The notes under the pieces are model-generated. The model did not search any database. It was not told the origin of the DNA and worked only from the letters and a program-made list of their open reading frames with translations. From positions 128,001-192,000 of the forward strand of contig JBLWTJ010000003.1 in assembly GCA_048270185.1 (NCBI GenBank): a stretch of 64,000 nt of DNA, read 5' to 3'. Below are positions 12,954 to 15,126 of this stretch, one piece after another (within the stretch, counting starts at the first letter, position 1; every line of letters begins with the position of its first letter). Both the position numbers and the translations under genes were made by a program. Source of the stretch: Bacteriovoracaceae bacterium (lineage in GTDB: Bacteria; Bdellovibrionota; Bacteriovoracia; Bacteriovoracales; Bacteriovoracaceae).

Positions 12954-12961
12954 TACTCATT

Positions 12962-13513
12962 ATGAAAAGAATCATTCTTGGTATTTGCATATTATTTACT
13001 ATCTTTAGTTGTTCTAAACCAACACCAAGTCAAACTGTCGATACAGTAATTAAAGAGACATTTCTTTTTAATTTTGAAGAAACTTTCTCTTACTATGATC
13101 CTGGTTTCTCGTCACAGCAACAGATTGCGGATTACCGCGGCTTTGTGAAAGATATTGTTGAGTGGGAGAAGAATATCAAAAAAACAAAGAAGGAAGTTCT
13201 TAGTGCTATACAAGGACTTCTTTCATATAAAATTATCGCTGAAAAAATTGAAGGAAGAACGGCCTATGTGACAGCGGTTGTTATAGCTCCTGAGTTCAAA
13301 AATAAATTTGATATGCAGATTGCTCTTTTAAGCCTTACTCGACCGCCACTAGTTTCCAAAAGGCCTCAGGCCAATGCTACGATTTTAAAGAATATTAGTG
13401 AGACTCAGTATGAGTTAAATCCTTCAGAGATTATTTTCACTCTAACAAAGAAAGATAAGTGGCGTATTTCAAGTGTCACTAATCTAGGAAGTCTGTGGCG
13501 CTTTGAAAATTAA
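12962..13513 (+). CDS. Hypothetical lipoprotein
   Basis: Lipobox-like IFSC after a hydrophobic leader. Confidence 0.7.
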   Translation: MKRIILGICILFTIFSCSKPTPSQTVDTVIKETFLFNFEETFSYYDPGFSSQQQIADYRGFVKDIVEWEKNIKKTKKEVLSAIQGLLSYKIIAEKIEGRTAYVTAVVIAPEFKNKFDMQIALLSLTRPPLVSKRPQANATILKNISETQYELNPSEIIFTLTKKDKWRISSVTNLGSLWRFEN

Positions 13514-13793
13514 ACCACTCTTTCTATTAATCTGTCTGCTTTTGACTTGTTTTACAAGTCATGACAGCTATACAAGCACTTCCACTGAAGTCTTATATGA
13601 ATATCATCAACAAAGTAATGAAGTTGTCTCTACTGAAGAGCTTACTCATCTCGCGCCTGGTATTAGTGAGCTAAAACTTAGTGCGCAAATCGTCTCTTAT
13701 TACTTATTAAATCTTCGTCAATCAATTGCAAATTACACTCAATATAGCCTTGGCGGCCACTCTGGCCTAAGTCCTCCTTATCATTTGATTTAA
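13503..13793 (+). CDS. Putative secretory leader/arrest peptide ending GLSPPYHLI
   Basis: 96-aa ORF with TTG start, signal-like N-terminus, polar linker and terminal SPP whose codons pair with the downstream RBS. Confidence 0.6.
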   Translation: MKIKPLFLLICLLLTCFTSHDSYTSTSTEVLYEYHQQSNEVVSTEELTHLAPGISELKLSAQIVSYYLLNLRQSIANYTQYSLGGHSGLSPPYHLI

Positions 13794-13834
13794 TCATTAC
13801 ATTAAATTTCTAAATTTAAATTGATACGGAGGAT
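13771..13834 (+). promoter_or_regulatory. RBS-sequestering mRNA hairpin
   Basis: TCCTCCTTATCA (13772-83) pairs 11/12 with TGATACGGAGGA (13822-33); AT-rich pairing continues inward. Confidence 0.7.
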
Positions 13835-13836
13835 GT

Positions 13837-13992
13837 ATGGAAAACACATCAAGTAAATATGATTACGAAGGTAAAACAAGAGAAGTTGTGACTACAGAAG
13901 AAGAGGGTGGGGTACTAGGTTTCTATCTATGTATTGGAATCTTTATATTGATCTTCTTTGCAGTCATTCTTGTTAAAGTATTTAACCTATAA
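13837..13992 (+). CDS. Small single-pass membrane protein (51 aa; absent from ORF track)
   Basis: GGAGG RBS, ATG 13837, MENTSSKYDYEGKTREVVTTEEEGGVLGFYLCIGIFILIFFAVILVKVFNL, stop followed by a terminator. Confidence 0.75.
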   Translation: MENTSSKYDYEGKTREVVTTEEEGGVLGFYLCIGIFILIFFAVILVKVFNL

Positions 13993-13995
13993 AAA

Positions 13996-14015
13996 AAGGG
14001 CCAGTAATGGCCCTT
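13996..14015. terminator. Intrinsic terminator between convergent genes
   Basis: AAGGGCCA-GTAA-TGGCCCTT with flanking A tract. Confidence 0.75.
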
Positions 14016-14034
14016 CATTCTTTTATTAATCAGA

Positions 14035-15126
14035 TTATTTAAAAATAACTTCACCTGGAACTGGATCTGTAATGACGATATCACCGTCATTGTCATCTCC
14101 TGAGGTCGGATCAGTTGGATCAGTTGGATCGGTTGGTTCCTCGATCTCAAAAACAGGAGTTCTCTTGATATACTCTGGTCTAAAGCCTTTCTCAACTGCA
14201 ATTTGTACTAGCTCTTCATACTTGGCTTCATCAATTTCATTCTCACGAGTAAGAATGAAGAGAGTTTGTCGATTTCGATCCGCTACGATTGCTTCTGTAT
14301 ATTCTTCATCAAGGTGGATGATTTGATAATCTCCAGCACCAACGCCAAAGTATCCAAGAAGTGGTACAAAGCTAACTTTTAATTTCGCATTTGAAATTTT
14401 ATCAGAAACTTTAGCATAGGCCTTATCAACTTTTGTATCCCCATTAACTAACTGACAAGAGTTCTTTACACGGATTCTGTTGTGTTTAAGTTTGTACTGT
14501 GCTTTCGTTCCCTGACATCTCTTGTTAAAGAATGCATCATATGCACCTTGTTGGTACCAAGTTCCTAGGTATTTTTTTAGATCAACATATTCAACTGTTT
14601 GAAAATTATTAAGTGGTAGCTCTTGTGAAGGAATAAGAACTTCATTGATTTCATGAACAATAATTTTCTTATCATATCCTTTTAAAGTACTTAAACGTAG
14701 AGCAGCGTTGTTGAGGATGAACTCCTCTGAGTCTCGGTCAACGAGAATAACACGACCACCAAATGTTTTAACTTGTTTCTTTTTTCTGATGTCTTGCTTT
14801 TCATGACGGCCATACCCAATGTGGTAGAGAAGTACCTTTCTAAGCTCAAGTGGATTGGCCAGTAAGTACTCAACTGTTTCAGGTGGTAATTTTGCAAATG
14901 CTGCATCATTTGGTGCAAAGATTGTAATTGGATGATCGATTGTAACGATGTCATCAAGTCCTGCAAGGCGTGAGGCACTTAGAAAGTTTTTAAACTTTCT
15001 CGAATGTTTCATAGCACTTACTGTTTCAGTCGCAGATAATTTTGTTCCCTTAGCTTCTCTTGCATCTGCTATCGCAGTGTTAAAGAAGAATGGCAGTGTC
15101 GCCATTACTAGTAATAGTCTTTTCAT
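14035..15126 (-). CDS. Secreted fasciclin (FAS1)-lipocalin (Blc-like) fusion protein
   Basis: FAS1 motifs TIFAPNDAAFAKLP, VLLYH and IVHEINEVLIP, then lipocalin VDLKKYLGTWY and LFILTR; PTD repeat tail. Confidence 0.85.
   Translation of the reverse strand: MKRLLLVMATLPFFFNTAIADAREAKGTKLSATETVSAMKHSRKFKNFLSASRLAGLDDIVTIDHPITIFAPNDAAFAKLPPETVEYLLANPLELRKVLLYHIGYGRHEKQDIRKKKQVKTFGGRVILVDRDSEEFILNNAALRLSTLKGYDKKIIVHEINEVLIPSQELPLNNFQTVEYVDLKKYLGTWYQQGAYDAFFNKRCQGTKAQYKLKHNRIRVKNSCQLVNGDTKVDKAYAKVSDKISNAKLKVSFVPLLGYFGVGAGDYQIIHLDEEYTEAIVADRNRQTLFILTRENEIDEAKYEELVQIAVEKGFRPEYIKRTPVFEIEEPTDPTDPTDPTSGDDNDGDIVITDPVPGEVIFK

Follow-up and report, generated by a model that had tools for sequence, protein, structure and literature searches.

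Searches of the sequence in front of secA, secDF, and yidC brought the known secretion monitors to light, most of which share RAPP-like motifs. In the SecM-secA system, the arrested ribosome opens a stem-loop over the Shine-Dalgarno (SD) sequence of the next gene, and translocation releases the arrest, as summarized in the LudP preprint. Here we describe a two-gene cassette of related design in a 64,000-nucleotide (nt) stretch of DNA from a Bacteriovoracaceae bacterium (hereafter the window), which sits on contig 3 of a 3.35-Mb genome. The cassette consists of a 96-amino-acid (aa) leader open reading frame (ORF) with a C-terminal GLSPP motif and a gene for a 51-aa membrane microprotein, the SD of which pairs with the Pro-Pro codons of the leader. 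We consider it probable, at a level of roughly 0.6, that the leader is a Sec-monitoring arrest peptide with a motif that is not RAPP-like and with new targets, and that leader and target together form a translational switch.

The leader resembles SecM in that both are small, apparently secreted proteins with a Sec signal at the N-terminus and, within a few codons of the stop, a motif that ends in Pro. SecM differs in its arrest sequence (FxxxxWIxxxxGIRAGP), its length of 170 aa, and its target, SecA, whereas the leaders described here are about 100 aa long and carry [S/T]GLSPP with Phe, Leu, or Tyr at position -9. The window leader has neither the SecM pattern nor a Pfam match to SecM and shows no sequence similarity to it. 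VemP-secDF2 of Vibrio, ApdA/ApdP, and the RQH-family upstream ORFs of secDF (RAPP/RGPP type) also combine a signal peptide or transmembrane segment, a divergent spacer, and a Pro-containing C-terminal motif with an export-related target. The present family is set apart from these by a target that is not secDF itself and by Leu-Ser at positions -3 and -2 in place of Arg/Gln/His-Ala/Gly. MifM-yidC2 of Bacillus subtilis is a membrane-insertion monitor of about 95 aa in which a hairpin masks the target SD, as it does here, but MifM has an N-terminal transmembrane anchor, an acidic multi-site arrest sequence without Pro-Pro, and an insertase as target. In the CutF-cutO pair of Rhodobacter capsulatus, a leader with a proline-rich C-terminal stalling sequence likewise controls a non-Sec target (PMC10987492). 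CutF differs in sensing periplasmic copper, in its motif, and in its target, a multicopper oxidase.

In the window, the cassette comprises the following features.

13503 to 13793, + strand: leader ORF of 96 aa with a TTG start and the C-terminus GGHSGLSPPYHLI, a candidate secretion-monitoring arrest peptide (ORF reading and homologous ORFs).
13503 to 13559, + strand: leader N-terminus MKIKPLFLLICLLLTCFTS, signal-peptide-like by a heuristic, with a basic n-region and a hydrophobic core.
13749 to 13778, + strand: leader C-terminal motif L-G-G-H-S-G-L-S-P-P, positions -9 to 0 (motif table of 25 leaders).
13773 to 13775 and 13776 to 13778, + strand: codons of the first and second Pro, the proposed occupants of the ribosomal P and A sites, respectively.
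13772 to 13783, + strand: hairpin 5' arm UCCUCCUUAUCA (also TCCTCCTTATCA), which covers the Pro-Pro codons and two codons beyond.
13822 to 13833, + strand: hairpin 3' arm UGAUACGGAGGA (also TGATACGGAGGA), which carries the SD GGAGG (13828 to 13832) of the microprotein gene.
13837 to 13992, + strand: microprotein gene, 51 aa, with a polar N-terminus, a conserved G-[LF]-Y, one transmembrane helix (approximately residues 27 to 49), and a short tail.
13996 to 14015, + strand: terminator-like GC hairpin at the end of the unit, bidirectional and common to a convergent fasciclin-lipocalin gene.

The original prediction, made from the letters of the window, had proposed the leader ORF ending in GGHSGLSPPYHLI, an 11-of-12 pairing between TCCTCCTTATCA and TGATACGGAGGA, and a 51-aa, one-helix ORF missed by the ORF track. 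All three are present; the SD of the short ORF lies within the 3' arm, 4 nt 5' of the ATG at 13837, and the terminator follows the ORF.

The leader family extends beyond this locus. We find leaders of 94 to 119 aa at 24 loci in genomes of the phylum Bdellovibrionota. The names carried by homologs in public databases assign the window organism to Halobacteriovorax, a genus that GTDB places in the Bacteriovoracaceae of this phylum (genome list of PMC10987492). The counts of cassettes differ by test: 25 leaders entered the motif table, 23 loci the duplex and spacing analyses, and the first 14 loci the codon analysis. Each leader has three parts, namely a signal-peptide-like start, a spacer that cannot be aligned, and a C-terminal [S/T]-G-L-S-P-P followed by 1 to 7 residues of varied sequence. 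The target is a microprotein in 13 loci and a free-standing periplasmic protein resembling the P1 head of SecD in the other 11.

A search with the 51-aa protein returned five homologs from the same genus (E 1e-13 to 2e-7), and at all five loci the gene order is desaturase, lipoprotein, 105- to 114-aa ORF, microprotein. These five leaders are only 24 to 37% identical to that of the window, yet all begin with MKI(K/R) and a hydrophobic core and end in G-x-H-S-G-L-S-P-P followed by LS, FS, YHLI, or YHSFS. A microprotein profile run against 237 genomes of the family matched 17 places, including the six known loci. Five were new small-ORF matches (G113, G006, G116, G042, and G107), each with a leader upstream, and two further places, both in G046, had no cassette. 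With four places inside frames of 332 to 566 aa excluded from the tally, the small-ORF matches of the microprotein searches carry a leader in 11 of 11 cases, and the leader played no part in the search. Signal peptides made the first leader profile noisy, but three further full-length members (G043, G163, and G120) came from it. A profile of 24 leader sequences (A8) gave 22 full-length matches among 301 genomes sampled across the phylum, each adjoining one of the two target types; this tally excludes six partial N-terminal matches, and the weak matches were mostly signal peptides in long ORFs. There is one cassette copy per genome, and the leader family is small, with 12 representatives among 1.84 billion clusters. 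The window leader matched no Pfam family at E values up to 1, except for a chance match to Trans_reg_C at 0.14. Nine stretches in 185,579 species genomes match the exact motif [LFQ]G[IGT]HSGLSPP; the two listed were both rejected as chance, out-of-frame occurrences in large genes of GC-rich genomes.

The conserved C-terminal motif was tabulated with the second Pro as position 0. Both prolines (0 and -1) and the Ser or Thr at -5 are present in 25/25 leaders, Ser at -2 and Gly at -4 in 24/25 each, and Leu at -3 in 23/25. Further upstream, position -6 is His, Pro, Arg, or Lys in 22/25 (H12/P4/R4/K2), and position -9 is Phe, Leu, or Tyr in 20/25. Variants include NSGLSPP, YSGLSPP, PTGPSPP, FTGSSPP, HSGLAPP, and HTGLSPP. 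The GLSPP motif originally proposed is thus conserved, although it is better written as [S/T]GLSPP with a hydrophobic residue at -9. Its claimed unlikeness to RAPP also stands: positions -3 and -2 are Leu-Ser in 22/25 leaders and Pro-Ser, Ser-Ser, or Leu-Ala in the others, and none has Arg, Gln, or His at -3. The RAPP-like and RQH arrest motifs, with [R/Q/H]-[A/G]-P-[P/G] at the arrest site, comprise RAPP, RGPP, RAGP, RAPG, HAPP, QAPP, TGPP, and RDGP (PMC10987492), and RSPP is reported only as a partly permissive mutant (PMC12992588).

The motif is held as amino acids through synonymous changes. Among the same-genus leaders, its codons vary between GGC, GGT, and GGA, CAC and CAT, TCT, TCA, and TCC, CTA, CTC, and TTA, AGT and AGC, and CCT and CCA. 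Across the first 14 loci, all four Gly codons are used at -4, six Leu codons at -3, and four Ser codons at -5. This variety argues for selection on the peptide and not on the nucleotides.

The rest of the leader matches what is expected of a monitoring substrate. The criteria for Sec/YidC monitoring substrates in the available sections of Fujiwara 2024 (PMC10987492) include an N-terminal secretion signal or transmembrane segment and a conserved C-terminus behind a non-conserved spacer of adequate length. A signal-like N-terminus, anticipated in the original prediction, is found at 23/23 loci by a heuristic that requires 1 to 3 Lys or Arg before a 12-aa core with a mean Kyte-Doolittle value of at least 2.0, and several leaders carry AxA-like sites. 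From the end of the hydrophobic core to the second Pro, the distance is 74 to 93 aa in 22/23 loci; the exception has 107 aa and a doubtful start codon. The first Pro lies 56 to 74 nt from the target start. The sequence between signal and motif is as divergent as predicted: among six Halobacteriovorax genomes the flanking lipoprotein is 67 to 97% identical, whereas the spacer is 13 to 28% identical. Between G011 and G004, the flanks are approximately 90% identical in nucleotides and the lipoproteins 97% identical in amino acids, whereas the leaders share 40% of their amino acids, the leader body or spacer 50 to 63% of its nucleotides and 28% of its amino acids, and the microproteins 53%. The spacer either changes freely or is exchanged between strains, in contrast to the constancy of motif, spacing, and stem.

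A further criterion of the same source is a stem-loop that sequesters the target SD, which an arrested ribosome would disrupt. RNAfold of positions 13760 to 13845, the fold suggested originally, gives -19.4 kcal/mol (z = -3.2, with 0/200 dinucleotide shuffles as good), and the stem persists in a 201-nt context (z = -2.3, 4/200 shuffles as good). The AT-rich extension of the stem over the leader stop codon, also part of the original prediction, is seen in the minimum free energy structure; the centroid structure differs, and the extension is weak. When the motif region is paired with the 25 nt that precede the target start codon, the SD region is part of the best duplex at 23/23 loci, and at 14/23 this duplex has a z score of -2.0 or less relative to shuffled 5' arms. 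Cognate arms pair with a mean of -12.8 kcal/mol, compared with -9.55 kcal/mol for arms swapped between loci, and 0/20000 permutations reach the cognate mean (22 loci after one near-duplicate was dropped); related genomes share arms, and the permutation figure is therefore not a strict probability. The helix covariation score, computed on a plain, unrefined MAFFT alignment of 14 loci, is 0.305, compared with 0.128 in shuffles (0/500 as high) and at most 0.154 in slid registers. Compensatory changes of the kind predicted are present in the same-genus loci, where the bases after Pro-Pro change jointly with those before the SD (UUAUCA/UGAUAC, AUUGU/ACAAU, AUUUU/AAAAU, and AUA/UAU). A search of Rfam gave nothing at the gathering score, and matches to MIR1120 were dismissed because they reflect hairpin shape only. 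At one locus with a P1-head-like target (L145 of G041, oriented 1777 to 1880), a second GAGG...CCUC hairpin is nested in the leader-SD stem, and alternative pairings are possible there.

The identity of the second target type ties the family to protein export. In G120, a gene for a 109-aa secreted protein takes the place of the microprotein gene behind the leader. The family of this protein (A7) comprises 73 clusters in public data, mostly from Bdellovibrionota, and one source labels a member 'preprotein translocase subunit SecD'. An A7 profile, searched independently of the leader against the 301 phylum genomes, matched 9 genomes in 5 families. All nine genes have a signal-peptide ORF 40 to 60 nt upstream (94 to 114 aa by the start codons chosen), and these ORFs end in PTGLSPP, RSGLSPP, RTGLSPP, KSSLSPP, or KTGLSPP followed by 1 to 4 residues.

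The relation of this target to SecD is clear only through the G041 protein, a profile of 26 SecD P1 heads, and a fold search. The 121-aa G041 target matches the Pfam family SecDF_P1_head (PF22599) with E 5e-11 and 42.9 bits (gathering cut-off 27), and A7 aligns with it over 83 columns (hhalign Prob 86%, E 4.7e-6). A7 also aligns with the 26-sequence profile (Prob 43%, E 2.5e-4), and the register is the expected one. For an AlphaFold2 model of an A7 member (pLDDT 73), the top eight fold matches in the PDB are all SecDF structures, among them 3AQO, 5YHF, and 5XAN (E 1e-3, probability 1.00, TM-score 0.54). Other routes were weaker: four A7-type proteins fall under the PF22599 cut-off, one of them undetected and three at E 0.029 to 0.11; Pfam gave E 0.089 for the G120 target; hhalign against a single SecD gave Prob 0.14; and a PDB sequence-profile search returned chance matches only. 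The alternative target at 11/24 loci is thus most like a free-standing, secreted homolog of the SecD P1 head domain and is not secDF itself. Because this target stands behind the same leader in relatives, the leader is linked to protein export, and the leader family as a whole has a target related to the protein-localization machinery, which is another of the published criteria.

The window genome contains no A7 gene detectable with the A7 profile. It has a yajC-tatA-like-secD-secF operon elsewhere, without a leader; that locus (L152, contig 1, 517500 to 523500) reads tgt, yajC, a 94-aa TatA-like gene, secD, secF, and a tatA-like gene between yajC and secD is unusual. The leader itself shows no similarity to the SecD N-terminus, and the idea that it is a secD remnant was rejected. 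In three genomes (G460, G413, and G466; L103, L104, and L105, oriented 1501 to 1710), the P1-head-like protein has a short form of 68 to 69 aa that ends after KLSKSGKAK. Similar forms of 63 to 85 aa occur on many public contigs, and the short form may be either a real variant or a pseudogene that has been truncated.

The microprotein is a 34- to 59-aa peptide with a single transmembrane segment across loci. Its family consists of 13 clusters in 5.8 billion proteins, all hypothetical and all from Halobacteriovorax or Bacteriovorax, and it matches no Pfam or NCBIfam family. In the ESM Atlas, the nearest clusters are nameless; a similarity to an Asp4 cluster, at 0.87, was discarded because it is below the trustworthy level and Pfam gave no Asp4 match. 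Our guess is that it assists or protects the export machinery of the inner membrane.

These features suggest how the switch may work. Translation of the leader would first yield a Sec-type signal peptide. Later, with ...[S/T]-G-L-S-Pro added to the nascent chain and Pro-tRNA in the A site, peptide bond formation would be slowed by the ten or so most recent residues, presumably the hydrophobic residue at -9, the His, Arg, or Pro at -6, and S/T-G-L-S-P, and the ribosome would pause. The paused ribosome would cover the Pro-Pro codons and the next 12 to 15 nt, that is, the 5' arm of the hairpin, and the freed SD would allow translation of the target, which is the 51-aa microprotein in the window and the P1-head-like protein in most other leader-bearing Bdellovibrionota. 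Once an active Sec translocon engages the signal peptide, for which the 74- to 93-residue spacer should be long enough, the pull on the chain would end the pause. Termination would follow 1 to 7 codons on, the hairpin would re-form, and the target would be switched off again. Target output would accordingly rise when export is slow. Every comparative test that the original prediction had proposed supports its interpretation of the locus as a secretion monitor, at the level of sequence.

Several observations weigh against this reading. The pause at Pro-Pro is itself deduced from sequence, X-P-P pauses are usually relieved by EF-P, and L-S-P-P is not among the RAPP-like motifs shown to arrest. 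The window target has no known family and no Sec-pathway neighbor; no sec or yidC gene lies near the leader, and the criteria of PMC10987492 expect one directly downstream. LSPP is not distinctively depleted in the proteome of the organism (1 observed compared with 5.2 expected, rank 9 of 85 XYPP words). The stem is weak at some loci, with a duplex z score weaker than -2.0 in 9/23 (-5.3 kcal/mol in G006 and -6.4 kcal/mol in G071), and differences in register and loop length between loci kept RNAalifold from a consensus on the MAFFT alignment, for which reason the anchored duplex tests were used in its place. CCN-CCN codons are also inherently complementary to GGAGG, and any Pro-Pro would bring some of the pairing with it. 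Finally, the cassette is a divergence hotspot (50 to 73% identical in nucleotides between L020/G011 1135 to 1670 and L023/G004, corresponding to approximately 13550 to 13990 of the window). In genomes that are otherwise alike, such divergence suggests that the cassette is exchanged as alleles or diversified by selection, and it could also point to another kind of selection.

A different explanation is plain translational coupling, in which the leader is a secreted peptide with GLSPP as a functional tag for binding, processing, or recognition and the hairpin ties the target to reading of the leader. Any ribosome that reads or terminates at the leader end would melt the stem, the Pro-Pro codons make a convenient anti-SD, and leader and microprotein diverge together, much faster than the flanks, as interacting or polymorphic protein pairs do. 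We nevertheless regard coupling as unlikely. The residues after Pro-Pro vary in number and sequence and co-vary with the bases before the SD, and one would expect a C-terminal tag to keep a fixed distance from the chain end. Coupling also leaves unexplained why the mature body cannot be aligned and yet keeps its length, why one leader design serves two unrelated targets, and why approximately ten conserved residues stop precisely at the SD-pairing Pro codons. The invariance of both prolines (25/25) would also be expected if the S-P-P pause reported EF-P activity or the supply of prolyl-tRNA in place of export; pausing at di-proline is EF-P-dependent, and MgtL is an example of a leader with proline codons that responds to the supply of proline. 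Such a sensor leaves the signal peptide, the spacer length, the S/T-G-L-S and -9 residues, and the export-related target unexplained, and we judge it very unlikely.

The short, single-helix target with its sequestered SD and required upstream ORF also brings to mind a small membrane toxin of the type I kind, with the leader acting as mok does in hok/mok, or a secreted bacteriocin-like peptide with a small membrane immunity protein, the hairpin keeping the hydrophobic peptide under tight repression. In hok/mok, too, a small hydrophobic peptide has a sequestered SD and is translated only with an upstream ORF, and the cassette is hypervariable between close genomes and has varied neighborhoods, which would suit a toxin. 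However, mok has neither a signal peptide nor a stall motif and hok/mok is controlled by antisense RNA, whereas at 11/24 of the present loci the target is a soluble periplasmic SecD P1-head-like protein and not a hydrophobic peptide. The single copy per genome likewise speaks against a toxin, as does the lack of any match to Rfam or to an antisense RNA family (PADLOC and toxin libraries lay outside the search); we give this explanation hardly any credence. Overall, the Sec-monitoring arrest peptide remains our preferred reading of the leader.

The surroundings of the cassette in the window include the following two genes.

12962 to 13513, + strand: upstream lipoprotein-like gene, 183 aa, beginning MKRIILGICILFTIFSC (ORF reading), which is context outside the conserved cassette.
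14035 to 15126, - strand: convergent gene for a 363-aa secreted fusion of fasciclin and bacterial lipocalin (Blc-like) domains, ending in a C-terminal PTDPTDPTDP repeat.

The TTG start of the leader overlaps the stop codon of the lipoprotein-like gene, and the two are therefore likely to be translationally coupled in Halobacteriovorax. At position 13503 of the window and at the five same-genus loci, this TTG lies inside the last lipoprotein codons (…RFEN stop). The leaders of other genera start at an ATG of their own, and at the two loci inspected (G113 and G043) no same-strand gene lies directly upstream. The lipoprotein-like gene has no Pfam family, does not occur in the cassette neighborhood of other genera, and was not found with a single query in five same-genus genomes that lack the cassette. 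A search of the + strand from 12955 to 14200, leader and hairpin included, gave no sigma-70-like promoter; a promoter inside the hairpin, which the original prediction had named as a possible source of expression independent of the leader, is thus not seen. One RNA-library run, all runs being in the form of contigs, yielded a single 171-nt contig, which lies inside the lipoprotein gene.

The neighborhoods vary by genus, with a DUF3124 lipoprotein and RND/TolC-like genes in one and a cation/proton antiporter-like gene in others, and the conserved unit is therefore leader plus target. In G113, G107, and G116 (L084, L085, and L086, all of one genus), the DUF3124 lipoprotein gene follows the cassette (Pfam E 1e-46 in G107, the one scanned). 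In two of these three it is followed by a 475- to 476-aa ORF with a signal-peptide-like start and a membrane protein of approximately 1045 aa, which by eye only resemble a TolC-like protein and an RND-type pump. A 500-aa antiporter-like membrane protein adjoins the cassette in two genera (7074 to 8576 of L087 in G042 and 5082 to 6590 of L089 in G163), in one case downstream and in the same orientation, in the other upstream and in the opposite orientation.

The GLSPP leader family was not found in the available text and partial supplements of PMC10987492 and PMC12992588. Full-text literature searches gave only unrelated papers for the motif and no paper that links Bdellovibrio to arrest peptides, and none of the papers listed links Halobacteriovorax or Bacteriovorax to arrest or stalling. 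The family was missed because its targets are not annotated as Sec genes. More speculatively, and with the balance of probability against it, the [S/T]GLSPP leaders may be a phylum-wide class of force-released arrest peptides whose two interchangeable targets are unrecognized Sec helpers: a soluble periplasmic 'mini-SecD' consisting of the P1 head alone, and a 34- to 59-aa inner-membrane microprotein of Halobacteriovorax and three sister genera that came to occupy the same feedback slot and would act on SecYEG/SecDF or on membrane integrity in export stress. If the stall is real, [S/T]GLSPP would be a new arrest sequence for structural work on the silencing of the peptidyl-transferase center by nascent chains, and monitoring leaders would be able to persist while their targets are swapped. 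The free P1-head protein and the membrane microprotein would then be marked, by regulatory logic alone, as two as yet unstudied factors related to export.

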